Positions 25,904 to 43,169 of a stretch of 64,000 nt of DNA are shown piece after piece. Where the stretch lies: NCBI GenBank assembly GCA_018056375.1, contig JAGPFQ010000001.1, positions 432,448-496,447 on the forward strand. Reading direction: 5' to 3'. The notes under the pieces were generated by a model, which was given only the letters and a program-made list of their open reading frames with translations, ran no database searches and had not been told where the DNA came from. Made by a program: the position numbers and the translations under genes. Numbering within the stretch: the first letter of the stretch is position 1; every line of letters begins with the position of its first letter. Source of the DNA: Candidatus Dojkabacteria bacterium (GTDB taxonomy: Bacteria > Patescibacteriota > Dojkabacteria > SC72).

Positions 25904-27900
25904 CTGTAATATTCACAAATATCTTGTGGTATTTCTCCTAAGAATCTTGACGGTATTTGGGAAGAGAACCCTTCTCTAGTAATCCTTTTTTCTGCAAAAG
26001 AAATAAACAACTTCTGTTTCGCTCTTGTAATCCCTACATAACACAACCTTCTCTCTTCTTCTAAATCGTCTTCTTCTAAAAATGACCTTGAGTGTGGTAA
26101 CAAACCTTCTTCAACCCCAACCATAAATACATAATCAAATTCTAGACCTTTTGAAGAGTGTAGTGTCATTAGATTAATATAATTACCAGTCCCATCCTGA
26201 TTCTTATCTTGTTCTTGTTCTATCAGATTAATTTCATTTAGAAACACCTCTAAACTTTTCTCTCCATATTTACTTGAATATGATGATGCTACACTTTTTA
26301 ACTCCATTATATTCTCTTTCTTCATTAGAGCTTCTTCTGTACCATCATCAAACCATTGTATATATCCTGTTCTTTCTACTATGGTATCTATCAACTGTAA
26401 AAGATTGGTGCTTTTCGCAAGGAAGAAAAGATTACCAAACAGAGTAATAACAGATTGATACTTACTCCACTTCTCTTTAATCTCCCCAATCTCTATTATT
26501 TTTTCTTCCTCTACATTTACTTTCTCTATGAATTCTTTATTATCAACAAGATATGCCCCTATGATAAACTCGCCTAAAGTTAAACCTACTTCTTTAGCAA
26601 GTGAATATAGCTCTGCCTTAGCTTTTGGACCTATCTTTCTTGGTGGAGTATTCAATATTCTATCTAGACTTAATTCGTCTTTTTGATTGAAACAAAATCT
26701 AAGGTAACTAATGATATCTTTAATTTCTTTCCTTTCATAAAACCTAAACCCTCCTACCAATTTGTAAGGTAATCCTAATTTAAGAAGAGCTTCCTCTATT
26801 GCCCTTGATTGATAGTTTGTTCTGTATAGTACAGCCATACTCTTTAAAGGAACACCTCTTTGTTGGAGAAGCTTTGCATTATTAACAATATATTCAGCTT
26901 CATCTTCTTGATCCATAGCTTGATATATTGTAATTTTTTCACCTTCACTATTATCTGTCCAAAGAACTTTATCTACTCTACTATTATTTTGTTGTATTAC
27001 ACTTATTGCTGCTTGTATTACATTCTTTGTAGATCTGTAGTTCTGTTCAAGTTTAACAACATTTACTTTCTCAAAGTCATCTTCAAATGATTGTATATTT
27101 TTTATATTTGCTCCCCTCCATGCATATATTCCTTGGTCATCATCACCTACCACACATATATTTTGATGTTTTTCAGAGAGTAGTTTTGCAAATTTATACT
27201 GTACTTCATTGGTATCTTGGTATTCATCTATTAATAGATATTTGTATTTATCCTGATACTTTTCCTTAATATCTTCATTTTCTTGTAAAAGTTTAACTGT
27301 TAGATAGAGTAAATCTCCAAAGTCTACAGCATTTTGAGCTTGAAGTTGTTTTTGATAGAGAGGATAGATCTCAGCAACTGTATCTTCAATAAAACCGTAG
27401 AAGTAGTTAGAGAAATTTTCAGGGGAAATCATCTGATTTTTAGCATTACTAATGAAGTATGATACTGATTTAGGTTTTATCTGTTTTATATCAATATCTC
27501 TTTCTATTAATAATTCTTTAATCATATTGTCCGAATCGTCAGAATCATAGATTGAGAAGTTGTTGTCTAACCCTACTGCTTTAGCATTTTGCCTTAATAT
27601 CATTGCTCCAATTGAATGAAATGTGCCTATTGTAGGAACTCCTTTCTTAAGCATACCCATATCTTTCAGTATTTCTTCAACTCTCTCCTGCATTTCTCCT
27701 GCTGCTTTTTTAGTAAATGTTACAGCAAGAATATTTGTGGGTGATATGTTTTTTTCACTAACTAGATATGCAATTCTGTTTGTGATAACTCGGGTTTTTC
27801 CAGATCCTGCACCAGCAAAAACTAGAAGTGGTCCTTCTGTACACATAACAGCTTTCTTTTGTTGGGGATTTAGTCCCTTAAGAATATCATTTGTTGCCAT
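25894..27900 (-). CDS. uvrD: ATP-dependent DNA helicase UvrD/PcrA
   Basis: 'LNPQQKKAV...AGAGSGKTRVIT' Walker A and SF1 motifs. Likely start is Met 'MATNDIL' at about 27900. The ORF track's 27966 start would overlap the upstream gene. Confidence 0.85.
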   Translation of the reverse strand: MATNDILKGLNPQQKKAVMCTEGPLLVFAGAGSGKTRVITNRIAYLVSEKNISPTNILAVTFTKKAAGEMQERVEEILKDMGMLKKGVPTIGTFHSIGAMILRQNAKAVGLDNNFSIYDSDDSDNMIKELLIERDIDIKQIKPKSVSYFISNAKNQMISPENFSNYFYGFIEDTVAEIYPLYQKQLQAQNAVDFGDLLYLTVKLLQENEDIKEKYQDKYKYLLIDEYQDTNEVQYKFAKLLSEKHQNICVVGDDDQGIYAWRGANIKNIQSFEDDFEKVNVVKLEQNYRSTKNVIQAAISVIQQNNSRVDKVLWTDNSEGEKITIYQAMDQEDEAEYIVNNAKLLQQRGVPLKSMAVLYRTNYQSRAIEEALLKLGLPYKLVGGFRFYERKEIKDIISYLRFCFNQKDELSLDRILNTPPRKIGPKAKAELYSLAKEVGLTLGEFIIGAYLVDNKEFIEKVNVEEEKIIEIGEIKEKWSKYQSVITLFGNLFFLAKSTNLLQLIDTIVERTGYIQWFDDGTEEALMKKENIMELKSVASSYSSKYGEKSLEVFLNEINLIEQEQDKNQDGTGNYINLMTLHSSKGLEFDYVFMVGVEEGLLPHSRSFLEEDDLEEERRLCYVGITRAKQKLFISFAEKRITREGFSSQIPSRFLGEIPQDICEYYSYK

Positions 27901-27913
27901 CTTTGTTGAATAT

Positions 27914-29089
27914 TTATATCTTCTTAAAATATCTAAGCATCGCCCATCCTTCAACTCCAGGTGCATATTGTATTTTGTACCAACCTTCTTCTTCTCCCAA
28001 AAGTATAAATATTGTACCTTCCTTGGGGCTATCTAAAATCTCACAACTTGCCCATCTGCATTTTCGAACATTTACAAATCCATACTCTGGAGAGACAACC
28101 TGTACCAGTGTTTTATCTCCTCTCACAATATTAAATTTCACTTCAAACTCAGAACCTTCAAATGGTTTTCCATCTACTTTCTGGAATACAAATGCCTGAC
28201 TGATTTCTCCAGTTAAAACTTTGGCTTCGACTTCAAAACCTATCTCAAATGTCTCATCTGGTTTAATACTCCTCTCAGATATCTCTACTGGTTTACTAAA
28301 GCTAGGCCATAGCTGATTAATTGCAAGGGAACTTTCCTTTCCATCTTTTGTAGAAACATATATTGGATCCCTATCGGTAAACCATGGAAAATCATTCTCA
28401 TTTGTAATTTTCACTTTCACTGTCACTCTACCACCTATTTCAGACTCTGTTGGTACAATCACCTCCTCTATTTTTGCTTTATAGTCAAGATGTTCTTCTG
28501 TATAACCTTGCCAATCTTTGAAGAGATTATTAATTGCTGTTGTAAATTCAAAAGGTGCATCTGTTATCTTTATACCAGACATCTTGTTTTCTTCCTTTAT
28601 AATATTTACTCTAACAGGTTTAAGTGTTGAAATACCCCAAGCATGAGCTATCTCATTAACCATTTCCATTAGTGATGTCTCTGCTCTTGCTGTTAAAGTT
28701 GGAGTATTTGAGAGATAGCCCACTAAAACAGCATTATCTAAATCATTTTCCTGCAGGTTAGCACCTAATCCTCCTGTTTTACCTTGATATATAATTCCAT
28801 TCTCATCAAGAAGATATGTATATGGTAAATCTGGGATGTAAAGTCTAGTAATGTAATAATAGTAAAGGGATTTAACCCAAAGTTCTGGGTCTTGAGATAA
28901 CTGTTCTGATTTCGTTGTTATTTGTGATATATATATTTTTTCAGGTGTTGTATATACCTGGTCTGCACCTTCAGTTAAGCTTGTATCAAATTTAAGAGTT
29001 GTAGTAGAAAACGATGTTAGAGCGAATGCTCCTGTTACAGAGAACAGGAATAGTAAAAGAGAAATTATTATGCTTTTTAGTAATTTCAT
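27914..29089 (-). CDS. secreted cell-wall hydrolase candidate: Amidase_2 (PGRP-like) region plus C-terminal SH3b domain
   Basis: Signal peptide. 'YTYLLDENGIIYQGKTGGLGA...VLVGYLSN' resembles N-acetylmuramoyl-L-alanine amidase family 2. C-terminal SH3b-like 'GWYKIQY...GWA'. Confidence 0.45.
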   Translation of the reverse strand: MKLLKSIIISLLLFLFSVTGAFALTSFSTTTLKFDTSLTEGADQVYTTPEKIYISQITTKSEQLSQDPELWVKSLYYYYITRLYIPDLPYTYLLDENGIIYQGKTGGLGANLQENDLDNAVLVGYLSNTPTLTARAETSLMEMVNEIAHAWGISTLKPVRVNIIKEENKMSGIKITDAPFEFTTAINNLFKDWQGYTEEHLDYKAKIEEVIVPTESEIGGRVTVKVKITNENDFPWFTDRDPIYVSTKDGKESSLAINQLWPSFSKPVEISERSIKPDETFEIGFEVEAKVLTGEISQAFVFQKVDGKPFEGSEFEVKFNIVRGDKTLVQVVSPEYGFVNVRKCRWASCEILDSPKEGTIFILLGEEEGWYKIQYAPGVEGWAMLRYFKKI

Positions 29090-29122: not shown

Positions 29123-30130
29123 CTACTTTTTTGTTTCTGTTTTAATATATTCTAAGTCAATTGCATTAAGATAGAATACTGCAGGAATCAGTATTTTCTC
29201 CTCTTTATACATAGAATCACATTGTGCATCAACTCGATAAACAGGGGTTAGAACTTCTTGTTCTAAGTGCTTGTATAGATAAACTATTGAAATCTTTTCA
29301 CCTCTGCAATTACCGATATGGTCATAAAACTTAGTATACATCTCTCTATCATTCCTCATCTCTTCTTGAATATCTAAACTTAGACTACCTATTTTCGCAT
29401 AGAACTGTCCAGGATAATTCCTACTGTTGATATTTGCACTAAATTCTTTATGCTCTATCAGTTCTGTCTTTTTCCCTGTATTTATAAAATCTGTTAAGAG
29501 TAATTTTGCATAAACAATCTTATTATCCTTTAATGCAATATAGTCTGTGTCCGAATCAACATCTGATATCTCTATAATATTCTCTCCTTCCAAATACCTG
29601 TTTGCAAAATAGACTATTTCACCCTTTGTTCTTTTCTCTGTATGAGTAACCTTGTATTTCCACTCCTTACCAAAATACTTTTTAACAACTTTGGAAAGTA
29701 TTTCTTCAGGAGGGTTGTCCATATTATCAACGGATAAAATATCATCACCCATAAACATAACAGTGTTGCCATTTAATTCATAGAAAATAGCAGAGTCTCC
29801 TTTGGTCCATCTATAGAAGTGTCCAGAAGATGATTGTTCGAGACTAAACCCAATACTGGATACTAGATTTTTTAGTTTCTCAAGACTTAATTTGTCACTA
29901 ACCTCCCATATGTAATAAATCCTATCAATAGGAAATTTCACCTTCTTATCTATATCAATATTTCTACTAGCCGTTTTTCTCAATGCGCCTTGATTAATTT
30001 CCGTATCTAACTTCTCACTGTCTTTTCCTCTTGTTAATAAAAAGATTACTAAACCAGTCATAAAAACAATAAATATAATTGCGATAATCAAAATCTTTTT
30101 CTTACGTTCTTCCATTCTCATAGAATACAA
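29123..30130 (-). CDS. N-terminally membrane-anchored hypothetical protein (335 aa)
   Basis: Single N-terminal TM and no recognisable motif. Confidence 0.4.
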   Translation of the reverse strand: MYSMRMEERKKKILIIAIIFIVFMTGLVIFLLTRGKDSEKLDTEINQGALRKTASRNIDIDKKVKFPIDRIYYIWEVSDKLSLEKLKNLVSSIGFSLEQSSSGHFYRWTKGDSAIFYELNGNTVMFMGDDILSVDNMDNPPEEILSKVVKKYFGKEWKYKVTHTEKRTKGEIVYFANRYLEGENIIEISDVDSDTDYIALKDNKIVYAKLLLTDFINTGKKTELIEHKEFSANINSRNYPGQFYAKIGSLSLDIQEEMRNDREMYTKFYDHIGNCRGEKISIVYLYKHLEQEVLTPVYRVDAQCDSMYKEEKILIPAVFYLNAIDLEYIKTETKK

Positions 30131-30138
30131 ATATTATT

Positions 30139-32751
30139 TTAAGGACATGGTGTAGTGTTACATCCAAAACCACCACTAGAAGGATCATTTGTCATAACAT
30201 CCTGAGGATTAACCTTTGTTCCATCATACACTAGTTCTAAGTGTAAGTGCTTACCAGTAGAACATGTATATGTTTCTTCATATTCCTGGATCCTACCTAT
30301 TGGGACTCCTGGTCCTAGGGTATCTCCAGGAGAGTATTCAGGGTTTAGTTTAGTGTGCACCAGAATAAATTTGTAGGTATGTCCCCCATATTCTGCCGTA
30401 AAGACAACTTCATCTCCTGCATGATCACCACAAGGATATGGCCTTGTAGAGATAAGAACACAATTCCCCAATCCAACATCACAAAAAGTAGGGGTATAGA
30501 AATAGCTAATATTAGTTACATCTATAGCTATTAAATTTCCGTGAGAATAGGAACCACCAGGACCCTGTGAACATCCTGTTTGTTGTGGTCCATAAAGACA
30601 AGTGACTCCATCAGGGAGTGGAGAACCTTCAAATAAGACATCTGGGATAGTACCTCCATAGGGAACTTCTACTGTAAAATCAGGAGAACATTCTTGTACT
30701 TGTTGTGGAACAATATGGGAGAATTTGCCAAATATTGCACCGACAAAAATGATTACAAATACAAGACAGCCAGAACAAGCAAAAACAAACAATGTAGTAA
30801 TCAACTTAAGCAGGGGTTTAAGTATCTTCTCCCCTATTTTTATTGCTAAGTTTATTACTTGATCTATAACAAAGTCTACAACTGGACCTAAGACCCTAGC
30901 CAGACCTGCTGAGACTCCATCTAGGAAAGCTTTGGCTGCTTCTTTGGCTGCAACTCTAACTCCTTGAAGAAAAACTTTAAAACCACCCTTCTCAACCCAC
31001 TGAGATAATATTTCTCTAGCTAAGTCACTTTCCCCGATTAGTTTAAGAATCCCATTCATCACTTTCTCTCTGACTTCTTTCAAAGATGATTCCTTAAACA
31101 AGTGCTTTGCTAAAAGTTTCTTGACTCTCTCTTTGTGTCTGTCAAGCACATTAAATCTTTTTGCAAGTTCCCTATATCTCTTATTCTTCTTGAAAATCTT
31201 CTCTAATTTCCTAAAATCACTTGGATTCATAGTTCCTGCAAGTCCTCGAAGATATGCTTCATCGCCTGTTTTAAAGAGTCTATTGAAATCAAGACCAGTA
31301 AACTTTGCTTGTGCCTTATCTCTTAACCTTAAAGCTCTATATGCAAATATCTCTCCTGTAGCTAGGGAGCCGATTAAACCTCCAGGTGTCAGATAATATA
31401 TATCAGTTAATAGTTGGTCGTAGTCATTGGCAACCTTTCGTATAAATTTGTTCTTAATCTCTTCCTCTGTCCTCTTTCTAGCAACCTTAACCGTTATTTG
31501 CCATTCATCCCCATCTTTATCGGCGAAACCTAGACCTAATTTTTCATCTTTTACTGGAAAGAGAGCACCTCCAAAAGCAGTATTTATATAAGGTTTATAA
31601 AAGTCTCCACTCATTATTGCAGGAACTAACCCTCCTCCTACAGTATATCCCCATACATCTTGTATTGATTTTAGTGTACCTTCTATTTCTCCTAACCTAC
31701 TTGAAGTGTTAATCCTATTCATTACTCTCAAGTCCTTGTTAATTCCCTTCATTTTGCTCTGTAGACTTTGAATCTTTGCTCTATTCCTAACAGGGTCAGC
31801 TCTTTCTAAAGAATCTATCCTTCTAGAATAGTTATCTAGAGTCCTCATCTTCTTTTCTCTAAGCACATCTGTATAGTTTCTATTATTCAAAGCCTCTACA
31901 AAACCAGCACTTTTCATTAGATTACCTGATTTTGTGTAATCACCTGCTACTCTAGCCTGATATGCCTTGTTCATCAGATTATCTCTCTCCATGAAAGCAT
32001 AGAAGCTTCTGTCTTTAGTAACCCCATCTAATCCTTTTATCCCTTTACCTGGTCCCTGTGCTTCTCCTGCTTGATATGTGTCTAACCACCGTTTATAAGT
32101 CTTGTCATATTCCTGTCCTGCTAAATCCTTTGCTGATAGCCCACCTTTAGGAGTATAGTAGCTCTGATAACGTGAGATATATTGTTGTTTCGTCAAAATC
32201 CTGTTAGGATCTCCAAAATGTTCTTTTGCTAGCTGTGTTGCTCTTGCTTTCGTTGTAGCATACTCATAACCTGCAGTACTCTCCTTCCCTGCAGTTAACA
32301 TTGCCATACGAGTATCAAAATCAAGATCGTTCTTTCTAGCCCAGTTAGCAGCAATTAGTCCTGCTATCTCATTGCCTGCCCATGCAAGCCTCCCCATTTT
32401 CCTGTTACTCTCAAAACGCTTAAACTGCTTGTCTATAAAGGACATGTCATTGTTTAAGACATCAATGATATTAGATGCCTTAATAGCTACATCCTCGCCA
32501 GGAGTAAAAGGATCTTGTCTTATCTTCCTGATATCAAAATCCATTACATCATTGAGGGCATCGGTTGTTGTTTTATTAACAAAAAGCAAAGGATTTTCTA
32601 AAACTCCTGCTATTACATCTGCATAAGCATCTGTAGAACTAACACCAGTAACTTTCACCGGTTTTACCTTATCAGGTGTTTTTTGTGCTTCCGTGAAGAT
32701 AAAGTCAAAGATTGAACTGAGAGAATCTTCATATGCTTTGTTTTTTTTCAT
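30139..32751 (-). CDS. large bitopic protein: about 640-aa cytoplasmic N-domain, single TM, and extracytoplasmic M23/LytM-like peptidase domain
   Basis: No signal peptide. TM 'LITTLFVFACSGCLVFVIIFVGAIF'. C-terminal 'CGDHAGDE...GKHLHLEL' matches the HxxxD/HxH pattern of M23. Confidence 0.5.
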   Translation of the reverse strand: MKKNKAYEDSLSSIFDFIFTEAQKTPDKVKPVKVTGVSSTDAYADVIAGVLENPLLFVNKTTTDALNDVMDFDIRKIRQDPFTPGEDVAIKASNIIDVLNNDMSFIDKQFKRFESNRKMGRLAWAGNEIAGLIAANWARKNDLDFDTRMAMLTAGKESTAGYEYATTKARATQLAKEHFGDPNRILTKQQYISRYQSYYTPKGGLSAKDLAGQEYDKTYKRWLDTYQAGEAQGPGKGIKGLDGVTKDRSFYAFMERDNLMNKAYQARVAGDYTKSGNLMKSAGFVEALNNRNYTDVLREKKMRTLDNYSRRIDSLERADPVRNRAKIQSLQSKMKGINKDLRVMNRINTSSRLGEIEGTLKSIQDVWGYTVGGGLVPAIMSGDFYKPYINTAFGGALFPVKDEKLGLGFADKDGDEWQITVKVARKRTEEEIKNKFIRKVANDYDQLLTDIYYLTPGGLIGSLATGEIFAYRALRLRDKAQAKFTGLDFNRLFKTGDEAYLRGLAGTMNPSDFRKLEKIFKKNKRYRELAKRFNVLDRHKERVKKLLAKHLFKESSLKEVREKVMNGILKLIGESDLAREILSQWVEKGGFKVFLQGVRVAAKEAAKAFLDGVSAGLARVLGPVVDFVIDQVINLAIKIGEKILKPLLKLITTLFVFACSGCLVFVIIFVGAIFGKFSHIVPQQVQECSPDFTVEVPYGGTIPDVLFEGSPLPDGVTCLYGPQQTGCSQGPGGSYSHGNLIAIDVTNISYFYTPTFCDVGLGNCVLISTRPYPCGDHAGDEVVFTAEYGGHTYKFILVHTKLNPEYSPGDTLGPGVPIGRIQEYEETYTCSTGKHLHLELVYDGTKVNPQDVMTNDPSSGGFGCNTTPCP

Positions 32752-32766
32752 TTAAACAAACAAGAA

Positions 32767-34083
32767 TTATTTCTTAAACATACCTCCAATTAAAGGTACA
32801 CCACTTAAACTCTCTTTAACCTTTTCCGCAGCTTTAGCACTGGCAGGTGTTTCATTAGGAGGTATTACCGCTTTAAGCATTTCAGGAGCAGAAGCTGCAG
32901 CATATAAGGCCAAGATTCTAGTAATACAGATTAAGAATCCTCCAATACTATCAGATCCTTTATTAGCAACCCCAACTAAAGTCTCAGGGAAACCAAGATT
33001 TATACTGTTATTATCCAAAAGACTTGGAAGGTTGACAATGGCATATGCTAAAGGAAAAACAAGAGTATTTCTTAAAGCCGACTTAAAGACCTCCAACATC
33101 TGGGCCGAATTACCTGGTAAACCACCTAGCATAACTTTTATAGGAGAGAGGATTACATCTACTAATAGTCCTAAATATGCCTTAACTAATGTTATCCATA
33201 ATTTAACAGCACCAACAATTACAACCCCCGCCAAGAATAAGCCAATAATAATAAGAAGAATGCCTCCTATTCCCAAAGGTGTAAGAAGCATAATGATTCC
33301 CGCAATAGTAAGACCAACTCCTATTCCAGAAGCTATGGGCATTTCTTTCCACAGTAAATCCCAGAAAAGAGCAAATGGCTGATGAATACGTACACCTCCA
33401 CCAATCTCACCAAAGATAAGATTAGAGATAATCCTCGTAACAATACCACCAAAATCAATTATCAATCCAATAATAGCAAAACTAAATGTAACTAAGATGA
33501 GAGAAATCACTATATTAGGTAGGGAGTTTCCTATAGTTACCATTGTTTGTCCCCCTATCTTATGCCTAAACATAATCATAAAACCAATGATTATCATCAC
33601 AATAACATAACCCAAATAAGCAAGGTTTCGCATCTTACTCCATAAGTCATCAACACCCATTTGTTGTAGGTCATCATATCCAGCAGCATAAACAGAACTA
33701 CTCTCTTTGTTATAACCCGGTATCCACTCATCTGCCAGATGAGCAATAACATCCACTCTTGGCTGATTATTGAACATAGCAACAACAGCAGATTCTGACA
33801 AACCTAAAAGACCCTTTCTCATAGTTTCTGGTAGATTAGCTTGCTGCTCTTCATCTAACAATTGAGGAGCAATTGTTATTAAAGCATTTTCAGCTACACC
33901 GTATGCTAGCTTACCGGTTAATTGCGACATATTCTCCCCCGGATCATCAACAACAGCTTTAATAGTATCAACTGTTTCTTTCCACCCTTTTAGTGTATTA
34001 ATAAAACCTGCATTTACCGGTCTCACAAAAGAAAAGAAGAGTAAGAAAGATATTATAAATAAAAGAAATGTCTTTTTCTTCAT
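32767..34083 (-). CDS. signal-peptide polytopic membrane protein (VirB6/TrbL-like topology), function unknown
   Basis: Cleavable signal 'FVRPVNA', an extracytoplasmic domain of about 150 aa, then at least 7 TM helices. Confidence 0.4.
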   Translation of the reverse strand: MKKKTFLLFIISFLLFFSFVRPVNAGFINTLKGWKETVDTIKAVVDDPGENMSQLTGKLAYGVAENALITIAPQLLDEEQQANLPETMRKGLLGLSESAVVAMFNNQPRVDVIAHLADEWIPGYNKESSSVYAAGYDDLQQMGVDDLWSKMRNLAYLGYVIVMIIIGFMIMFRHKIGGQTMVTIGNSLPNIVISLILVTFSFAIIGLIIDFGGIVTRIISNLIFGEIGGGVRIHQPFALFWDLLWKEMPIASGIGVGLTIAGIIMLLTPLGIGGILLIIIGLFLAGVVIVGAVKLWITLVKAYLGLLVDVILSPIKVMLGGLPGNSAQMLEVFKSALRNTLVFPLAYAIVNLPSLLDNNSINLGFPETLVGVANKGSDSIGGFLICITRILALYAAASAPEMLKAVIPPNETPASAKAAEKVKESLSGVPLIGGMFKK

Positions 34084-34124: not shown

Positions 34125-35591
34125 TTAAAGTCCATATTGTGTTGCAGATCTATCTCTTGCAACCTCAACACTTTTCCAGTATACATCAAAATTCTTAGGA
34201 AAGTCATCCTGTCCAGGTGCTTTATCTTTCGCTTCTATATTATAGTTAGCCAAGAATGGAGACATATCCCAGAGACAAGTAACATCTACATACGAACCAT
34301 CAATCGTTGCTCCACACTTAGTACCTACAAAAAATGTTAAGCTGTTTTTAGTACTAGAAGCACCTACTTTTTTCCCTTTACTTTGAACAGGAGATAACAG
34401 ACCTTTTTGTACATATGTTAAAAAAGCATTTGCACAAAGTTCATCTGTACACTCATAAGGGTCTCCAAATATTGGAGTCATCTCCACTATTATACTTGCA
34501 GGGTCTACACATTGGCCATCTGATACACCCATAACTTCTCTTGTTGGAGAAGCATTATCAACTGTTTGAGTTGAAGGTTTTGGCTTACATGTCTCCCATT
34601 GGGCAGGAGAGAAAAGTTTTTTAAGTTTACCCCCAATAATGGCAATTGTTTTAGTACATGCAGTATAAGTGTGCTTATCCTTTTTATAGTCTTCTCCTTC
34701 CACCAGACACTCATCTGTTTCTGTTGGCACGAAGTTGTCTCCACCTGGGATCTGTTGTCTTGCATAACCTCCATTGTCTTTGTCAGATGCAATATAGTTT
34801 GGTTTTCCTACATTGTAGTCACCAATAGCTATCTCTTTTTCGTGTTGCTTTTTATAGCAAGAAGGACAAGGCTGATGATCGGCATTTGTGACAGTATACT
34901 TTCCTATTGGGTTATTTTGACCACCTTCAGGATTAACATTTGTTTTTATTCTTCCCTCTACTTCAAAATTTTCTCTTTCTGTTCCAGTTATAGATTCTCT
35001 AAATTCTGTGGCTTCTGCTGGAGACAAGGTTCTAGAGACAAATTCTTCATCTATTTGTTCTCCACTTGATTTATACTCTGGTGTCGTTTTTGTAATCTGT
35101 TTTCTACTATCCTTAAAGGTAAACTGTCCTAGCATAAGAGCTAGTGGATATGTTACCTTTACCAATTCTATCTTAGTATCTTTTGTTACAAGAATATTAC
35201 CACTAGAAGATGTAGGAGAACCGGAACTGTAATTTATACCCCCACCTCCTTTTGTACATGCAACTCTAACGGAACTAAGAGAGTTTTTAAAATTAGAACA
35301 GTCCAAACCTAATACACTACCTTCTGTATCTTTTAAATTTTCCGTTATGTCTACAGTCTGAGAATCATCTATGTATGCAATATTTAGAGATTCTGTATAG
35401 CTTTCATCTAAAACTTCTGTTGATACTTCTTGTGTATCACATGTTTGACATGTCTCGACTTTTGGGACAGGATTGTGAACAGGTTCTACTTCTTTCTTTA
35501 CATTTGTAGTAATCTTAACCATAAGGTAAGAGAAACCTACTAAAAAAAGTAGAAAGTAGAAAGCCTTTTTATTTGTCCTTGTATTCCTCAT
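34125..35591 (-). CDS. N-anchored Cys-containing secreted protein (488 aa), function unknown
   Basis: N-terminal TM, many Cys, no recognisable motif. Its 5' end overlaps the 3' end of the upstream gene by 23 nt. Confidence 0.4.
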   Translation of the reverse strand: MRNTRTNKKAFYFLLFLVGFSYLMVKITTNVKKEVEPVHNPVPKVETCQTCDTQEVSTEVLDESYTESLNIAYIDDSQTVDITENLKDTEGSVLGLDCSNFKNSLSSVRVACTKGGGGINYSSGSPTSSSGNILVTKDTKIELVKVTYPLALMLGQFTFKDSRKQITKTTPEYKSSGEQIDEEFVSRTLSPAEATEFRESITGTERENFEVEGRIKTNVNPEGGQNNPIGKYTVTNADHQPCPSCYKKQHEKEIAIGDYNVGKPNYIASDKDNGGYARQQIPGGDNFVPTETDECLVEGEDYKKDKHTYTACTKTIAIIGGKLKKLFSPAQWETCKPKPSTQTVDNASPTREVMGVSDGQCVDPASIIVEMTPIFGDPYECTDELCANAFLTYVQKGLLSPVQSKGKKVGASSTKNSLTFFVGTKCGATIDGSYVDVTCLWDMSPFLANYNIEAKDKAPGQDDFPKNFDVYWKSVEVARDRSATQYGL

Positions 35592-36483
35592 TCTGTTTAG
35601 TTTTGTCTAATATAACTTTAGATACATTTTCTGTCTTTTCAAAATCTTTCTTCTCTTTCTTTATTATACTCCTAAGATATATATACATACCCCCTAAGAG
35701 TACAAATAGCAAGATAGAAATAGTCAAAAACATTATATCAAATTGTGAGATTTCTTTTTGTGGTATAGTATTTTTTCCAATTGGTTGTTCTGTAGTTGTA
35801 TTTTTGTCATTTTCAATCACCTCTGTTTGTTCTGTACTACCCTCTAAATCAATTGAAATTTCCTCTTTCTCAACTTGACTTAGAGTAATCTCTTTTTCAA
35901 TAGGAGATTGAGTAGTGTATGTTTTTAATTGTAATAGATCTTTCTCTGTAAATTCAAAATAGCTCTCTCCATTTTCTGTTCTCATACTTGAAAGAGATAG
36001 TGACCAATAGCCATTCTCATCTACAAGGCTAGACATTATATTACTTATTCCTCCACTTCCTGCAGAGTCAGTGTCTTTAATATTCGCTAAAATAACAGCT
36101 TCTTTATGCTCAGGTAGATTAAGAAGTTGACCTTTAGAGAATTCAAAACCAGGAGGAGTGTTTAATGTCTTGAATGTTGTAACGGAGAAATGTTTCCCTC
36201 CGTTATCGTATTCTTCTTCTCCTGAAACAACATTAAAGAAATACTCTGTCTCTGGTCTTAGTCTTGAAAGTTTTACACTATGAACAAAATATCTATTTCT
36301 AGAAAACATATCATCTCTCTCATCGTTTTCCGTATTGGAAAGATTTGACTGAGATATTCCATATTTTACATAACCTTGTTCTCTTTCTTTTGAGATCCAA
36401 AGTACTGTAAAACCTGTGTCTGTAAGATTCGTAACTATTACACTTGCTTCTCCTACATTTTCCTCCTGTTCTATATTGGGCAT
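35569..36483 (-). CDS. surface protein paralog with PAP-N/FN3-like module and C-terminal TM anchor (304 aa). No N-terminal signal peptide.
   Basis: 'VTNLTDTGFTVLWIS...YGISQSNL...YFVHSVKLSRLRPETEYFFNVVSG...NGGKHFSVTTF' plus a C-terminal hydrophobic segment with KKEKK tail. Confidence 0.5.
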   Translation of the reverse strand: MPNIEQEENVGEASVIVTNLTDTGFTVLWISKEREQGYVKYGISQSNLSNTENDERDDMFSRNRYFVHSVKLSRLRPETEYFFNVVSGEEEYDNGGKHFSVTTFKTLNTPPGFEFSKGQLLNLPEHKEAVILANIKDTDSAGSGGISNIMSSLVDENGYWSLSLSSMRTENGESYFEFTEKDLLQLKTYTTQSPIEKEITLSQVEKEEISIDLEGSTEQTEVIENDKNTTTEQPIGKNTIPQKEISQFDIMFLTISILLFVLLGGMYIYLRSIIKKEKKDFEKTENVSKVILDKTKQNEEYKDK

Positions 36484-36521
36484 GTTTAAATTATCTTAAT
36501 TTATCCTTCTAAATCCCTATA

Positions 36522-38519
36522 TTAAAGCTCCTTTACCATATCACCTTTACCTTTTTTCTTAAATGAGAAATATGCTATAGTTCCACTACCTATTAAGGAT
36601 ATAGATATTAATAATATTCCCCAGAAAGAATCGAGTGCTCCTGTTTTAGGTGTCTCACCTGAGTAAATGGGTTGTTGAGGAGTTTCCGGAGATACACTTT
36701 GAGGATTCGACGAAGGTACTACATATTGAGCAGACCCAACAATACCGTAATCTTTCAGTCTGCCCACGTTTACTTTATCTGCAGGAGGAACAGAAGAATC
36801 TTTTTCAAGGCCTATGACTATGTCTTTGAGGTCTATACCTTCCATACCTATTTTTTCTTGTGGAGCACTAAAAGTTGTATATGGTTCAATTATTAAGGTA
36901 TCTCCAGCTGTGTGTTCAAAATAGCTAGTACCATCTTCTACTCTCATTTCAGATAGAGGAAGACCCCAACTTCCATCTTCACTTACATCTGTAGATATCA
37001 ACGTACTTGTACCTTTACTACCTGTATCATCTCCATCCTTTATGCTTGCTAACAAAATTACTTCCTTATGCTCAGGCATGCCTGTTAATTCCCCTACAAT
37101 ATTAAACAGACCTCCTGTCCTCTCTATTTCAGGGAATGTAGTAACAGTAAAACCTTTTCCTCCATTGCTATATGTATCATTCCCAGATACTACGTTGTAA
37201 TAGTACTTTGTTTCAGGTTGAAGTTTTTCAACATTGACAGTATGAACATAGTATTCTCCTTTAACAAGTTCGCCATCCCTTTTGTCTAATGCTACACTGT
37301 TAAGCTGAGTCGGAGAAGTTCCATACTTAACAGTACCTTCTTCCTTTTGAGCAGATACCCACAGGACTGTAAACTTCGTATCACTCAAGTTTGTAACTTT
37401 AATACTATCAGGGCCTGTGCTTCCACTAACACCTGATTGAGATGCAGTGGTAAGGTCTGTCCACCTTATATGATGTATTATTCTATACTGTCTATTTGTA
37501 AATTCTTTATCATTATCCATTGGATCTGTATCATAATTATCACCTGGTATATATGGGTCGTCTGGTCTATATGGGTCTTCATAGTCATCATATGGATCAC
37601 TTGGTTCTTCAGTGTTTGCACTTATACATAATTCCCTAGTTAGATATCTTCCAGAACCAGAGCAATTCTCTGTTGTCTCTTTACATATACCATCAAAATA
37701 CCAACATTTACCCTCTTCAGGTGAGGAAACTACTAGCTTTGATTCTTTTGGGAGAGATGCATATATATCTTTTCCTTCCTCTAGTAACAAGTCATTTCCA
37801 GCCCTTAGTATACCTGCACTGTCAAATAGTGTTGCATATGTACCAGTTAAGACAGCTCCCCTGCCTCTTCCATCTATAGCAAGGATTGTAATGCCTGTAC
37901 TGTCTGTTATCTTAACTCTTTCTTTATCTGCTATGCTTAAGATAGAAGAGAGGTCTAGATGCCAACTTTTACTACTGGATAGTGTTGAAGATACAGGGAA
38001 TGAGCTTTGGTCACTAAGTAAGAGATAGACCACGACATCGTCATCAGATGCTGATGATACTTGACCTCCTGCGGGATTAACAACAGGAAGTTTTTCACTC
38101 ATTGGAGCTGTTCTAAACATTAGTTCTTTTCCTTCACTTGATGTGTATTTTTTACTATCTGATTGTATTAAGAATTTGTATTGAGTATTTGGAGCCAGGT
38201 CAGAGAGCTCAACATAGTGTGTATATCTTTTGTCTAATCTGCTTGAATCTCGAACATCTTTGTATGCTTTTCTTTCTTCTCCATTTTCGAGTAAGACTAC
38301 TGATCCATATGCTGATTTTTCAGTTGTCCAAGATATTGTTATTAGACTAGTAGTAATATCACTTATTGCAACATTTTTAGGGTCTATGTCTTGAGAAGCT
38401 CTACTTCTCATGTCAATTATCTTATGTGTTGCAAATACCAGAAGTGGTAGTGCTAGGATAAGGACTATTAGAATTACATTCTTTTTCCTTCTTATTTGAG
38501 GTAATTGAGCTATTTTCAT
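36522..38519 (-). CDS. surface protein with two PAP-N/FN3-like modules, an acidic Cys-containing central region, and a C-terminal sorting-signal-like TM (665 aa)
   Basis: N-terminal signal anchor. The modules 'ISDITTSLITISWTT...YTHYVELSDLAPNTQYKF' and 'VTNLSDTKFTVLWVS...YYVHTVNVEKLQPETKYYYNVVSG' are paralogous to the 304-aa protein. C-terminus 'TPKTGALDSFWGILLISISLIGSGTIAYFSFKKKGKG'. Confidence 0.55.
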   Translation of the reverse strand: MKIAQLPQIRRKKNVILIVLILALPLLVFATHKIIDMRSRASQDIDPKNVAISDITTSLITISWTTEKSAYGSVVLLENGEERKAYKDVRDSSRLDKRYTHYVELSDLAPNTQYKFLIQSDSKKYTSSEGKELMFRTAPMSEKLPVVNPAGGQVSSASDDDVVVYLLLSDQSSFPVSSTLSSSKSWHLDLSSILSIADKERVKITDSTGITILAIDGRGRGAVLTGTYATLFDSAGILRAGNDLLLEEGKDIYASLPKESKLVVSSPEEGKCWYFDGICKETTENCSGSGRYLTRELCISANTEEPSDPYDDYEDPYRPDDPYIPGDNYDTDPMDNDKEFTNRQYRIIHHIRWTDLTTASQSGVSGSTGPDSIKVTNLSDTKFTVLWVSAQKEEGTVKYGTSPTQLNSVALDKRDGELVKGEYYVHTVNVEKLQPETKYYYNVVSGNDTYSNGGKGFTVTTFPEIERTGGLFNIVGELTGMPEHKEVILLASIKDGDDTGSKGTSTLISTDVSEDGSWGLPLSEMRVEDGTSYFEHTAGDTLIIEPYTTFSAPQEKIGMEGIDLKDIVIGLEKDSSVPPADKVNVGRLKDYGIVGSAQYVVPSSNPQSVSPETPQQPIYSGETPKTGALDSFWGILLISISLIGSGTIAYFSFKKKGKGDMVKEL

Positions 38520-38607: not shown

Positions 38608-38895
38608 CTATTCTTCTTTTTTCTCTCCTGATTTTAGACCTGAAAGAAAACCACTTATGAGAGATATACCTGCCCCTATTCCCCTGATTGGTTGAATTAT
38701 TGCATCGTTAACTTCTTCAACTGTTCCTTTGACAGAGGATATTACTGTACTTGCATCCTCTGTTATCTTTTCTACATTTTTAAGTGTATTTCTACTTTCT
38801 TTAACAAACATCCCTATTTCATAGAGAATAAAGGATAGTAATCCTGTTAAGACAGTAACTATCACCATCCAAAATAGTGGTGGTATTGTTTCCAT
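38608..38895 (-). CDS. small membrane protein (95 aa)
   Basis: N-terminal TM, a coiled-coil-like middle and a C-terminal hydrophobic patch. Confidence 0.35.
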   Translation of the reverse strand: METIPPLFWMVIVTVLTGLLSFILYEIGMFVKESRNTLKNVEKITEDASTVISSVKGTVEEVNDAIIQPIRGIGAGISLISGFLSGLKSGEKKEE

Positions 38896-38912: not shown

Positions 38913-41900
38913 TTATTTTGTTCCACACTCCCCATTTTTTTGTCCACCAGGATTCCAAATGATTGATTTACAATTTGCTTCCTTTGGTTGGAAACTGTTA
39001 ATTCTTACAAAGTATCCATTTAATGGACTTATTGGGAAATCTTGACCATATGTTTGACCTTCTGATACCTGGAAGCCTTCATACCTACCTTTACTAGTTG
39101 GCCACCACGTTACATTGTTAGATTGAAGACCTTCTGTACTATTAATACTATTTATGAAGGATTGAGCTGTATATGCTTTTGTATGACCATGTACTCCTAC
39201 TAAATTCCAACCTTCTGAGAAGGCGATTGGTACAGAACTCTTAAGAGTTTTACCTGGGACTGATATAGTAGCATCTTTCGTTGCAATTATGACATAGCCT
39301 TTACCAAATACTAATGTTTCATCGGTAAAACCTTTGGTTTCCTTTGTTGTAAAGTCATAAGAAACACCACCTTCCCAAGCACCACTTTGGAAACTTGCAA
39401 TTCTTGTTATTATTCCTTCATCCTTATTCATTAGTTTAACAAAATCTCCCATCTTTAAACCTTGGTTTGCACTTACAGTTGGAAGGAAGTTAAATGAAAT
39501 AATATTAATTCCTGATTTTAGGTCTATTTCATTCATTGTCACCTCATCAGAAACTGTTACTGTAGTAGCAGATTTAGGTACTAAAAGGTCTTCATTATCT
39601 TGTGGATTATTTGGATCTTCAGGAGCTTGATATCCATCTAGACCATTTCTCTCATAGTAGAATAGATGTGCAGTCCCTGGACTACCCATTACGATTGCAC
39701 TTCCACCACCTTCAGCACTAATTTTATATATAGATATTTCTGGGAAGTATATTAAATCTGTACTACTACTTACTTCCTCTGCGTGTACTTTAGAGACATA
39801 TTTGGAACTTGCACCTCCACTTGAAAGTGCAGGACAGTCCTCTAATGGACAAAGAATATTATCCTTAGTGTCATCGAATTTATGATACTCTCTCCATTCA
39901 CATTTATGATAAGAAGAAAGTGTTGATCTTGGATTCTTAAAACATACCAACTGAGTGCTTTCATTGTATGAATCAAGATCCTCACAGGAAGAATCTCCGT
40001 GACACAATTCTGTCGTAATAATCGTAGAGCGAGCCTTCTCACACTCAGTCATTGAACAAAAACTTCCTCTGTTTCCAGTACACTGACTTTTAGGTATTCC
40101 ATTTCTATCTGTTGTATACCCATATGTAGATCCACAACATTGTTGATTAGAAATTTGCGTTGCTCCCATTGATTCTGGTGTGTAATAGCAATAACACCCA
40201 GCCGGACTGTAGCACTTAGATCCCCCTCCAATAATACGGTCACTTTGACCAATCATTGATCTCGCTGCGGCATTACACGAACCCAACTCTAGGTACCTAT
40301 CTGCTCTAATTGTCCCATCATCATTGTAACAGAAGCTCCAGTCACCACTATTACTACACAAACCGTAATCACCTATATTTATATAATAGCACTTTACTTC
40401 ACTTCTACGTTTTAAGAAATTCCTACACTCTGTTAGAGTTCTATATAAATTAGAGGATGGTAAACATCCTTTGCTCTTAGGATACTGAGACTCACTACAT
40501 AAAGCACTCGCTTGGGCTTCGTTTCTAACAATCTCAAAACAGTACTTCCCATCAACTCCACCTCCTTCAATCTGGCATACAGTTGGTTCTCCCGCTTTAC
40601 CAAAATTAAAAGGATCCTTACCACTACCTTCACAAATACAACCATAGTGATAACCATACCCTTTTTGATCATGACATGGCGCTCCTTCAGCATTCGCTTT
40701 TATTGTTAAACGTTTTGTAGTATCCGTAGGAGAAGTATCTATTGTCTTACATAAAGTGGGTTCACTAGTATTCATCTTCCCAAAATTCTTAGTAGTACCA
40801 TCACTATATTTACAAATACAACCATTATCTTTATCTGGACATGTTACTCCTGTAGTAGTAGGTATTACAGGCATTCGTTCTGTAGGAGAAGCATCTGTTG
40901 TCTTACATAAAGTTGGTTCGTTTGTATTCTTCTTCCCAAAATCCTTAGTAGTACCATCACTATACACACAAATACAACCATTATCTTTATCTGTACATGC
41001 TGCTCCTGTTTCTGTAGCATTCACCCTTTTTGTACGTTTTGTGGGGGTAGGAGTAGGAGTGTTGGAACAATATATTGTATAACCATTAGTACTCGACACA
41101 TTCAAACGTGTCCCCGTAACAGAAAAACCTGCATTCACAGTATATGGCATACTAGAGCTACAGAAAGCATTATAGTTAGATGCTGTAGAAGCACTAACAC
41201 AGAGACTCAAATCTCCACCTCCAGCACTAGTTTTACCATTGATTACCACAGGGAAACTTGATGATTTACAAGAAGAACTGGACTTCGCATTATTACAAGC
41301 AGTTGTTGTGGTATAACAACCACTTGCAGAATCACAAGAGTCCTTTTGTACTTTTGTAGAACAATTAGGAGTACAATAACAATCCTTCTTAGTTGGAGCA
41401 CCACCTAGGTTACTCTCACATGTAGATTTATGTAAATAACATCCTTCACGGGTATTGCAATTAGTTTTCTTTATAGGTTCAGCGCACTGATTTTCTGTAC
41501 AATAGCAGTCTCTTTCAGTGGTTTGAGGAGGCTGAGTAGGTTGAGGTTGGATCTGATCTTGACACACTGACTGAGAGTTGTAACATCCTTCACTAGCATT
41601 ACAACTAGGTTTTTGTTGAGCAGCTCCACAACTATCATTAGTACAATAACAATTTTGCAAGCTAATACATCCAGCCCAGCTAGGATCACAACTTGCAGTA
41701 CATCTACCACTAAGACTAACAGAATACCCATTCGCAGGAGTTCCAGCAATAGTACATGTACAACCATTACCGTTTTGACATATAGCACCTTCTGTTGTTA
41801 ATGCTGTAACTCCTTGGTCTCCACAACCTACATTACCACAAGTAACTCCAGGACCCTCAACAACTTTGTTATAACACAGTGTTCTATTCTGATCTCTCTT

Positions 41901-43169
41901 ACGATACTGCTTATAACATTTGTTAAGTCCATTCGAACACCCTCCTCGTACATAACCATCATCAGGATAACAACCATCTGCAGGTTCTTGAGGTACAGGC
42001 GATGGTGTTGACGTGGGAGGGGTTGGCGCGGGAGGAGTTGGTGCAGGATTAGAAGGTAGTAAATCTTTACAGAGCCCCTGATTCCCATAATATCCTTCGC
42101 TAGCTTTGCAGAATTTACCTTGAATAGTTGTAGCATTACAATTATCATTCACATCGTAACAATAAGCTGCATAAGTTTTACTAATCAATTTTCTAAGTAA
42201 ATTACCTAACTCTTTCTCTTCACTCTTATCCTCTCCCCAATCATCTTCACTATTCCCCATTAATTTAAGAGGGAATGACGTTTCTTCATACAATGCATAA
42301 CCTGTCGATCCTGGTTTTGCATTATCTACCTGAGGCATGAACTCTAATAGAGCTCCTTCCATAGAAACAGGTTTATTCTCCTCATCTCTAATATTAGCTA
42401 AATCAATACTCCAACCTCCTTCTTTATTTGTAACTGCTGACATCAAAGGATACTCATTACCATCCTTGAATGTCCTAAGGAATATAACGGAGTCAAAGTT
42501 TTTCCTCTCCCCCATACTCCCATCATTTCTATAATAAGTATTATATGATGTCCCATATGCAGAGTTTGGTGTAGTTATATCTGTAATCAGAGACTTTGTT
42601 TTCTGCGAAAACACAAGAGAGACTGGAAGCTCTCTCTCTACAAACTCAACATCTTCAAAATTACTTTGATTATAACTAATCAATCCATTACCCACCCTAA
42701 AGAAATATTCCTTATCTGCATCTAAATCTGGTACTGTAACATGGTGAGTATAGTATGCTCCTTTTTTAGTTACTTTAACATTATCACAATCAAAGCCAGT
42801 AACCTCTATTGTAGAGTCTTCACTCTTCTTGGATACCTGCTCGTTAAACTTACTAACACATTCTGTCTGAGCATTAGATACATCCCTATCATCAAAGGCC
42901 TTCTTCTTACCTAACCAAGCTAATGGACCTGGAAGAAAGTTATCCTTCTCTCCATAGTAAACCATACCGACCATTGGTTCTTTAGTCACCCATGAGACAG
43001 TAAAGGCACTATCTGTTACATTACTTACTCTTACCTTGTACGGACGATTCTTTACACTAAAGTAAGCTACATATCCTACATAACCTAGAAGTAAGACAAT
43101 TAACACTCCCAGAGATACCTTAGAAATGGTTCTAAGGGTTTTAGTAAAACTTGGTTTCATACAATACAC
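38913..43169 (-). CDS. giant N-anchored Cys-rich extracellular protein (1418 aa) with N-terminal PAP-N/FN3-like module, Pro/Thr linker and several Cys-repeat families
   Basis: Signal anchor. 'VSNVTDSAFTVSWVT...YYTHHVTVPDLDADKEYFFRVG'. 'PAPTPPAPTPP' linker. Three 'CYCTxNxC...CN..EGCY' repeats. Three roughly 47-aa 'C(T/P)DKDNGCIC.YSDGTTK.FGK' repeats. No C-terminal TM. Confidence 0.6.
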   Translation of the reverse strand: MYCMKPSFTKTLRTISKVSLGVLIVLLLGYVGYVAYFSVKNRPYKVRVSNVTDSAFTVSWVTKEPMVGMVYYGEKDNFLPGPLAWLGKKKAFDDRDVSNAQTECVSKFNEQVSKKSEDSTIEVTGFDCDNVKVTKKGAYYTHHVTVPDLDADKEYFFRVGNGLISYNQSNFEDVEFVERELPVSLVFSQKTKSLITDITTPNSAYGTSYNTYYRNDGSMGERKNFDSVIFLRTFKDGNEYPLMSAVTNKEGGWSIDLANIRDEENKPVSMEGALLEFMPQVDNAKPGSTGYALYEETSFPLKLMGNSEDDWGEDKSEEKELGNLLRKLISKTYAAYCYDVNDNCNATTIQGKFCKASEGYYGNQGLCKDLLPSNPAPTPPAPTPPTSTPSPVPQEPADGCYPDDGYVRGGCSNGLNKCYKQYRKRDQNRTLCYNKVVEGPGVTCGNVGCGDQGVTALTTEGAICQNGNGCTCTIAGTPANGYSVSLSGRCTASCDPSWAGCISLQNCYCTNDSCGAAQQKPSCNASEGCYNSQSVCQDQIQPQPTQPPQTTERDCYCTENQCAEPIKKTNCNTREGCYLHKSTCESNLGGAPTKKDCYCTPNCSTKVQKDSCDSASGCYTTTTACNNAKSSSSCKSSSFPVVINGKTSAGGGDLSLCVSASTASNYNAFCSSSMPYTVNAGFSVTGTRLNVSSTNGYTIYCSNTPTPTPTKRTKRVNATETGAACTDKDNGCICVYSDGTTKDFGKKNTNEPTLCKTTDASPTERMPVIPTTTGVTCPDKDNGCICKYSDGTTKNFGKMNTSEPTLCKTIDTSPTDTTKRLTIKANAEGAPCHDQKGYGYHYGCICEGSGKDPFNFGKAGEPTVCQIEGGGVDGKYCFEIVRNEAQASALCSESQYPKSKGCLPSSNLYRTLTECRNFLKRRSEVKCYYINIGDYGLCSNSGDWSFCYNDDGTIRADRYLELGSCNAAARSMIGQSDRIIGGGSKCYSPAGCYCYYTPESMGATQISNQQCCGSTYGYTTDRNGIPKSQCTGNRGSFCSMTECEKARSTIITTELCHGDSSCEDLDSYNESTQLVCFKNPRSTLSSYHKCEWREYHKFDDTKDNILCPLEDCPALSSGGASSKYVSKVHAEEVSSSTDLIYFPEISIYKISAEGGGSAIVMGSPGTAHLFYYERNGLDGYQAPEDPNNPQDNEDLLVPKSATTVTVSDEVTMNEIDLKSGINIISFNFLPTVSANQGLKMGDFVKLMNKDEGIITRIASFQSGAWEGGVSYDFTTKETKGFTDETLVFGKGYVIIATKDATISVPGKTLKSSVPIAFSEGWNLVGVHGHTKAYTAQSFINSINSTEGLQSNNVTWWPTSKGRYEGFQVSEGQTYGQDFPISPLNGYFVRINSFQPKEANCKSIIWNPGGQKNGECGTK
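40570..41040 (-). repeat. in-frame tandem direct repeat (three copies of about 141 nt, third degenerate) inside the 1418-aa CDS
   Basis: Near-identical stretches about 120 nt apart ('...ttagtagtaccatcactata...caaatacaaccattatctttatctg...'). Visible at protein level as two CxDKDNGCICxYSDGTTKxFGK copies plus one divergent copy. Confidence 0.6.

Follow-up and report, generated by a model that had tools for sequence, protein, structure and literature searches.

The question of how epibiotic members of the Patescibacteria, or candidate phyla radiation (CPR), break into their hosts and live off them is raised here by a gene pair on the chromosome of a Candidatus Dojkabacteria bacterium (CPR/Patescibacteria; formerly WS6). 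The window, that is the whole stretch of 64,000 nucleotides analysed in this work, is low in GC (~34%) with nearly all of its genes on the minus strand, and two adjacent genes in it encode an 870-aa protein ending in a peptidoglycan hydrolase domain and a 438-aa membrane protein. In the original prediction, made from the sequence alone, this pair was likened to the cell-wall hydrolase and the VirB6/TrbL-like channel component of Gram-positive conjugative or type IV secretion systems (T4SS), and with no secretion ATPase gene in the window it was suggested to be either an ATPase-independent assembly or a remnant. What, then, is the pair a part of, and what could it do? Our results revealed that it belongs to an envelope operon of 7-8 genes which is vertically inherited across Dojkabacteria, and that the enzyme head of the 870-aa protein is exchanged as one block together with the entire 335-aa gene behind it. 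As to function, we tentatively favour, at somewhat less than an even chance, a T4SS-related envelope module in which a VirB6-like platform is combined with a tethered wall endopeptidase and a cognate partner restrains the latter, the ATPase being encoded elsewhere.

Both open reading frames (ORFs) were found where they had been placed, at 30139-32751 for the 870-aa protein and at 32767-34083 for the 438-aa protein, with a gap of 15 nt between them. They lie on the minus strand and the 438-aa gene is therefore upstream of the 870-aa gene, so that the adjacency claimed before stands while the order, in which the 438-aa gene had been put directly downstream, is reversed. The features on which the argument turns are the following.

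32767..34083, minus strand: 438-aa polytopic membrane protein of VirB6-like fold (ORF, hydropathy, AlphaFold2 model, Foldseek against PDB)
30817..32751, minus strand: residues 1-645 of the 870-aa protein, a conserved and mostly helical N-domain (alignment, AlphaFold2, library searches)
30706..30816, minus strand: residues 646-682 of the 870-aa protein, the main transmembrane (TM) helix (hydropathy, family alignment)
30139..30654, minus strand: residues ~700-870 of the 870-aa protein, the extracytoplasmic M23 metallopeptidase head and variable part of the family (profiles, Foldseek, ligand alignment)
29123..30130, minus strand: 335-aa membrane-anchored ectoprotein, the cognate partner of the M23 head (co-variation, breakpoints)
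29123..30700, approximate, minus strand: exchangeable cassette of head and partner gene, ~1.56 kb (comparisons of loci L002/L021 and L059/L077)

The 438-aa protein starts with a signal-peptide-like segment (VNA/G), where A25 is invariant in 81 relatives, followed by an acidic helical ectodomain of ~124-125 residues and by hydrophobic blocks at residues 150-176, 182-223, 253-324, 335-356 and 377-399, which make 6-8 helices by hydropathy. The topology proposed for it is thus recovered in its signal-peptide-like start, while the periplasmic domain measures ~125 aa and not ~150 aa, and 6-8 hydrophobic helices stand where at least seven had been claimed. No Pfam or NCBIfam family matches the protein; its homologs, more than 222 in number, are essentially all unnamed, the named ones come from Candidatus Dojkabacteria, and the family is confined to Dojkabacteria and close relatives. 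The AlphaFold2 model, built on an alignment of 81 sequences, is confident (pLDDT 83.4), and in the Foldseek search of this model against PDB TrwI/VirB6 chains from the T4SS of R388 take all of ranks 1-5 (E 0.03-0.34), ranks 1-3 having a probability of 0.99-1.0, a TMt of 0.43 and ~300 aligned columns, while unrelated membrane proteins reach a probability of at most 0.28. Moreover, the 438-aa protein is polytopic in the membrane and bears an extracytoplasmic domain at its N-terminus, as do the VirB6/TrbL proteins TrwI and Orf15. The TrbL/VirB6 membership itself was not obtained at the sequence level by Pfam or hhalign, and because sequence methods give no confirmation of the link, we limit the label to VirB6-like in modelled fold and in topology and do not extend it to the family.

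The 870-aa protein was confirmed to have no signal peptide. A single TM helix had been put at about residue 650 with a cytoplasmic domain of ~640 aa before it, and in fact one strong segment is seen at residues 646-682, whose N-side is placed inside by charge bias, and which ends at a conserved junction motif (F/Y)SH(I/V)xP with P682 invariant or nearly so in the family. However, a second hydrophobic stretch is located just before it (residues ~596-646; window 30817-30960, minus strand), reaching a Kyte-Doolittle value of at least 1.6 in 55 of 82 relatives and being weaker in the window copy, so that a hairpin anchor is possible and the cytoplasmic side of the N-domain is likely but not secure. 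Residues 1-645 are helical with one β-hairpin, the first 60 residues being the most conserved part, and the AlphaFold2 model of this domain is confident for residues 130-350 only. The N-domain has no match in Pfam, NCBIfam, PDB profiles or Foldseek, and these searches place it in no known family. The whole family, enlarged by an exhaustive representative search, comprises 282 representative clusters at E <= 1e-3, and a repeat word-indexed search with the 870-aa alignment added nothing.

The C-terminal M23/LytM-like domain of this protein proved genuine by profiles, by Foldseek and by its ligands. The window copy is matched by PF01551 at E 0.013 (16.1 bits), below the gathering cut-off of 28.7, and the same profile matches 19 of 50 relatives with E down to 6e-26; the PDB profile search reports M23/LytM at E 0.0075. 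In the structural comparison the head region (pLDDT 75-88) is matched to LytM 2b13_A with probability 1.0 and a TMt of 0.61, and the LytM-type fold is found against 2b13_A, 2b44_A (LytM), 8s3m and 4lxc (lysostaphin) with Foldseek probability 0.99-1.0. Among 79 M23-type relatives, H737 is kept in 71 and D744, H799, H835 and H837 are each kept in all 79, and H799 and the HLH of the head align to the LytM motifs YMHN and HVH in the PDB profile search. Thus the alignment of the active site, which the original prediction had named as a check, finds the ligands H737, D744, H799, H835 and H837 intact. Of the zinc motif read from the sequence as HAGDE ... HLHLE, the HLHLE half holds, but the His of HAGDE is not conserved, and the first motif is S-H737-x6-D744 instead. 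Six Cys are conserved in the 79 M23-type relatives, which fits an extracytoplasmic and disulfide-bonded head, and the tether between the TM helix and the head is ~20-25 residues long.

It is at this head that the family varies, the N-terminal ~690 aa being constant. The heads are of M23, unclassified HExxH…E(WGAD), SLT+CHAP, M23+CHAP and VanY types, and the type of the partner gene follows that of the head in 56 of 56 typed loci: M23 heads (A) go with 335-type partners, HExxH heads (B) with a deeply diverged homolog of the 335-type partner (hhalign probability 99.2% between the A and B types), and CHAP-ending heads with an unrelated partner of 145-175 aa. The similarity between partners tracks the head type (0.229 vs 0.032), whereas that of the 438-aa and 391-aa proteins of the same cluster is unrelated to it (0.310 vs 0.319 and 0.428 vs 0.445, respectively), and on the tree of the 438-aa and 391-aa proteins the head type needs at least 14 changes, as compared with 17.9 on average for random shuffles. 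The exchange can be seen directly between loci L002 and L021, in which the DNA is 98% identical on both flanks of a non-homologous block of 1.56 kb, starting ~15 residues past the TM helix and the (F/Y)SH(V/I)xP motif and ending with the partner gene; loci L059 and L077 show the same pattern. The head and the entire 335-aa gene are a cassette exchanged as one block, a feature absent from the original prediction, and such a block suggests that diversifying selection acts on a surface enzyme. No orphan cassettes were found in the window. The 335-aa partner, for which no Pfam or NCBIfam family was found, may be an immunity or regulator protein.

Two of the alternative heads deserve a description of their own. 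The HExxH head (L021:13169-13709, L001:13300-13908) has an invariant H-E-x-x-H, an invariant E 16 residues on (EWGAD) and four conserved Cys, and judged by these residues it looks like a gluzincin-type metallopeptidase; it has no Pfam match and no credible PDB profile match. At L043:11443-15253, an M23+CHAP double head is accompanied by a small CHAP-type partner only, with no 335-type partner.

The synteny of the locus was compared over 30 related loci with full flanks, and the species were counted over 365 species-representative genomes, in which a relative of the 438-aa gene is present. In all of the 30 loci the order is the same, namely an optional Cys-rich giant and then proteins of 95, ~665, 488, 438, 870, ~335 and 391 aa, and in all of them uvrD/pcrA, an opposite-strand G5 protein and a TPR protein lie 3' of the cluster, with fusA further on the downstream side and rsmB/rsmE upstream, while protein identity across the loci falls to ~25-35%. 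An intact operon that keeps its order throughout the class rules out a decaying mobile element, and the suggestion of a remnant was rejected on these grounds. What the locus suggests is a wall-breaching module under diversifying selection, not a decayed secretion system.

As had been noted, no VirB4, VirD4 or VirB11 is encoded in the window, where Pfam scans of the larger ORFs gave housekeeping genes only; the housekeeping genes there are those of EF-G, RNase Y, tRNA synthetases and tgt/queA and the SecY-Adk-RpoA ribosomal operon. In none of the loci is there an ATPase within 10 kb of the cluster other than the UvrD-type helicase, which shows that the lack of a linked secretion ATPase is typical of the locus throughout and not an accident of the window. 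In the literature, VirB4 is reported in 2,417 of 3,035 CPR assemblies, Dojkabacteria included, and T4SS parts are often dispersed or unlinked in related classes, VirB6 homologs being scarce in Microgenomates. T4SS genes are essential in the sole genetically tractable member of Patescibacteria, and for several classes the homologs of VirB6 and VirB1 have been reported as scarce or as poorly linked (PMC12102498). Since two Dojkabacteria genomes are VirB4-positive (PMC12102498 Table S1), an unlinked ATPase would be available.

Taken together, these results can be read as follows. The 438-aa protein would be a VirB6-like polytopic membrane platform, and the 870-aa protein a membrane-anchored peptidoglycan endopeptidase of PrgK-type build, with a non-exported N-domain, a short tether and a disulfide-rich M23 head. 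This head would cut peptidoglycan beside the membrane complex, either in the cell's own wall or in that of a host, so as to make an opening or breach for a trans-envelope structure related to T4SSs. The VirB4 ATPase of that structure might be encoded elsewhere in the genome; the 335-aa membrane-anchored ectoprotein would bind and restrain its cognate head. As far as fold and architecture are concerned, the proposed resemblance to the hydrolase and VirB6 components of Gram-positive type IV systems stands.

Several points weigh against the envelope module so conceived. No virB4, virB3, virB8 or pilin gene lies within ±10 kb in the 30 full-length related loci, and the linkage to virB4, a criterion for VirB6/TrbL proteins and for VirB1-like hydrolases, was seen neither in the 64-kb window nor in the 30 loci. 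As for the 438-aa protein, the best Foldseek E is just 0.03 and the TM-scores are modest; the window protein has no match to the VirB6/TrbL profile (PF04610) or to any other in Pfam, Pfam TrbL is touched by 1 of 81 relatives at E 0.0044, and hhalign of the family gives 0.2% for TrwI, 0.2% for PrgH and 6% for an 11-sequence VirB6 profile. As for the 870-aa protein, the possible second TM segment leaves the side of the N-domain uncertain, and if this stretch spans the membrane, the N-domain of ~600 aa would lie outside despite the absent signal peptide; moreover this domain is unrelated in sequence to PrgK by hhalign, and VirB1-like hydrolases are not known to swap heads at the strain level. Two observations on the cassette are uneasy with a simple inhibitor role of the partner: the A and B partners are homologous though their heads have unrelated folds, and one M23+CHAP head stands with a CHAP-type partner alone.

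The behaviour of the cassette fits a polymorphic effector-immunity system against hosts or competitors equally well. The locus would then not be a T4SS part in the first place. Here the 870-aa protein would serve as a trafficking and anchor module for interchangeable wall-degrading toxin heads and the 335-aa gene would provide cognate immunity on the outer side of the membrane, where the head acts, delivery through the VirB6-like protein being compatible with this scheme but not required by it. As a whole we regard this explanation as rather doubtful, although it accounts for much of what was described above: the constant N-terminal region of ~690 aa carries alternative C-terminal enzyme heads, the downstream gene co-varies and is co-replaced with them, its type agrees perfectly with that of the head and independently of phylogeny, and the breakpoints between near-identical genomes are sharp and follow the junction motif, as in the C-terminal replacement of CdiA/Rhs. 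The partner is also membrane-anchored with an ectodomain, as are immunity proteins for extracellularly acting effectors. Nevertheless the operon is a core one at a fixed position in the whole class and no accessory island, and because the tether is so short the head cannot reach another cell unless released; neither a secretion signal nor a site of processing was found. The absence of orphan cassettes from the window, the homology of the M23 and HExxH partners and the M23+CHAP variant lacking an M23-type partner speak against it too.

A housekeeping complex for wall remodelling or division is unlikely in our estimate, and less so to be credited than the effector-immunity scheme. Its parts would be an autolysin and a regulator of it, together with surface fn3 proteins and a PGRP/SH3 protein, and the likeness to VirB6 would be one that helical bundles have in general. 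A core syntenic operon set among rsmB/rsmE upstream and uvrD, TPR and fusA genes downstream, with several wall-directed proteins in one cluster, no secretion ATPase nearby and no support for VirB6 from sequence profiles, speaks for such a complex. Against it, what Foldseek matches is VirB6 chains in particular and not helical membrane proteins generally, a recurrent swap of unrelated heads between near-identical strains is unusual for a housekeeping autolysin, and no known division hydrolase has a counterpart to the large conserved N-domain. Finally, an origin from a conjugative element in decay or from a tape-measure-like gene of a prophage is highly improbable and was rejected, like the remnant, on synteny, since the weak tape-measure matches in PHROG (the 870-aa protein at E 3e-4, with only a coiled coil of 90 residues aligned, the 95-aa protein at E 0.002-0.026) and the end-to-end alignment of long 'Peptidase M23' phage proteins of BFVD (E 8e-4, probability 0.92, TM 0.12-0.14, these TM-scores being meaningless and the model of low confidence) stand against a fixed chromosomal position across the class, intact ORFs, identity down to ~25-35% and the lack of phage, relaxase, integrase or coupling-protein genes in the window and in the flanks of the other loci, with neither significant homology to tape measure proteins nor a position among tail genes.

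The other members of the cluster in the window, from its downstream to its upstream end, are these.

27914..29089, minus strand: 391-aa secreted protein, PGRP/amidase_2-like with a C-terminal, wall-binding SH3b domain, last gene of the conserved cluster
34125..35591, minus strand: 488-aa N-terminally anchored Cys-rich ectoprotein, always directly upstream of the 438-aa gene
35569..38519, minus strand: two membrane-anchored proteins, of 304 and 665 aa, carrying fn3 / Pur_ac_phosph_N domains
38608..38895, minus strand: 95-aa protein that begins with a TM helix and has a repeat region; the conserved part of the cluster starts with its gene
38913..43169, minus strand: 1418-aa Cys-rich surface giant, optional upstream member of the cluster

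The 391-aa protein is always 3' of the partner gene and highly conserved (56% mean column identity), its PGRP/amidase_2-like N-domain being matched by PDB profiles at E 2e-4 to 4e-4 and its SH3b domain at E 8e-6. The 304-aa and 665-aa proteins have C-terminal TM anchors. Among the conserved genes of the cluster there is a 665-like one, while the 304-aa gene, missing from most related loci, looks as if the C-terminal half of the 665-aa gene had been duplicated. The 1418-aa protein, present in about half of the related loci, is N-terminally anchored with a Pur_ac_phosph_N/fn3 domain and repeated Cys-rich modules, and the 95-aa protein has weak matches to DUF948 besides those to three tape-measure PHROGs. 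For the 335-aa and 488-aa families, PDB profile searches gave no credible match. Hidden Markov models of seven cluster families searched against all ORFs of pCF10 (including Tn916-like genes), R388 and pCW3 gave nothing significant, the best matches being the 438-aa family with TcpD at E 0.04 and the 335-aa family with PrgL in the TM region only.

Always directly downstream of the cluster and on the same strand lies the UvrD/PcrA-type helicase gene (25894-27966, minus strand), which as annotated begins before the 391-aa gene has ended; the helicase, ~70% identical across the class and the sole ATPase near the cluster, is probably a housekeeping one. The syntenic G5-domain protein on the opposite strand (24935-25903, plus strand) has a C-terminus (EKESGCN…GLFQW) that resembles an SLT/Rpf-type transglycosylase by eye, as reported by no tool. 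Elsewhere in the window there are two more genes related to the wall or the surface, for a YkuD L,D-transpeptidase (4991-5956, minus strand) and for a CAP-domain protein with Ig-like domains (15398-16888, minus strand), and a 504-aa ORF with no Pfam family (53392-54906, minus strand) between the Adk/SecY ribosomal operon and the upstream genes. A promoter and terminator scan showed no enrichment over shuffled sequence and is thus uninformative.

The locus offers candidates for the VirB6-like and VirB1-like parts that seem to be 'missing' in Dojkabacteria. One may go further and imagine a lineage-specific, T4SS-derived wall-breaching apparatus of an epibiont, possibly without a dedicated linked ATPase, in which the swappable head would be matched to the peptidoglycan chemistry of the host and so determine the host range, the partner would shield the cell's own wall, and the blocks would be ancient alleles under balancing or diversifying selection, shuffled class-wide; this is an improbable extension, offered as speculation. 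Independently of it, near-identical genomes which differ only in the 1.56-kb block of head and partner are a natural experiment, the heads and partners are open to direct expression and assay without culturing the organism, and with the N-domain of 645 aa and the partner of 335 aa, two protein families are brought to attention for which no relatives are known. A class-wide core operon with a recombining cassette of hydrolase head and partner was not found described in the literature searched.

Compared with known systems, the locus shares a part of its features with each of several. Some phage tape measure proteins carry a C-terminal M23 domain, for example Pb2 of T5, and such proteins are long and helical with one or more hydrophobic segments before a muralytic head, as the 870-aa protein is; however, the latter is encoded by a chromosomal core gene with no phage context and no significant homology to them. 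Analogies to the type VII secretion system (EssB/EsaA) and to SpoIIIA-SpoIIQ were considered and set aside with no tool result in their support. With the M23/LytM metallopeptidases such as LytM and lysostaphin, the head has the fold and the catalytic residues in common, while its first motif is H-x6-D where HxxxD is usual, three disulfides are probable in it, and the window copy stays below the Pfam gathering cut-off.

The polymorphic toxins (CdiA-CT/CdiI, Rhs, LXG-type) likewise have a constant N-terminal part with a C-terminal domain that is replaced along with the downstream gene, and sharp breakpoints after a conserved junction motif with many independent switches are seen in them as here. 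They differ in being accessory islands, whereas the present locus is core and fixed, its heads being wall hydrolases or peptidases tethered near the producer's own membrane, and in the cassette described here two partner types are mutually homologous and no orphan cassettes are seen in the window.

Among the VirB1-like hydrolases, PrgK of pCF10 has 871 aa with an intracellular N-domain, a TM segment at 245-278 and external LytM, MUR and CHAP domains (PMC12857230). The layout of N-domain, TM helix and external hydrolase in PrgK and in TraG of pIP501 is that of the 870-aa protein, in which the side of the N-domain is judged from charge bias, and the repertoire of LytM/M23, SLT and CHAP domains is common to both families. 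The lengths of PrgK and of our protein are nearly equal (871 vs 870 aa), but the N-domain has ~245 aa in the former and ~645 aa in the latter, and the window protein has a single head, which is swapped with a partner gene and has no virB4 adjacent to it.

The VirB6/TrbL proteins, finally, differ from the 438-aa protein in having no detectable profile similarity to it, and the 438-aa gene is never linked to virB4; unlike the monoderm VirB6-like proteins, it also lacks a C-terminal cytoplasmic extension. Nevertheless TrwI of R388 is the sole specific structural match of the 438-aa model, and TrwI, PrgH, Orf15, ConG and TcpH share with it an N-terminal anchor, a helical ectodomain of ~100-125 aa and a TM bundle. 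Moreover in Tn916 and ICEBs1 a VirB6-like gene lies immediately upstream of the wall hydrolase gene, as the 438-aa gene does here, and the order orf15-orf14-orf13 of Tn916 parallels that of the VirB6-like protein, the hydrolase and the bitopic protein in Dojkabacteria.

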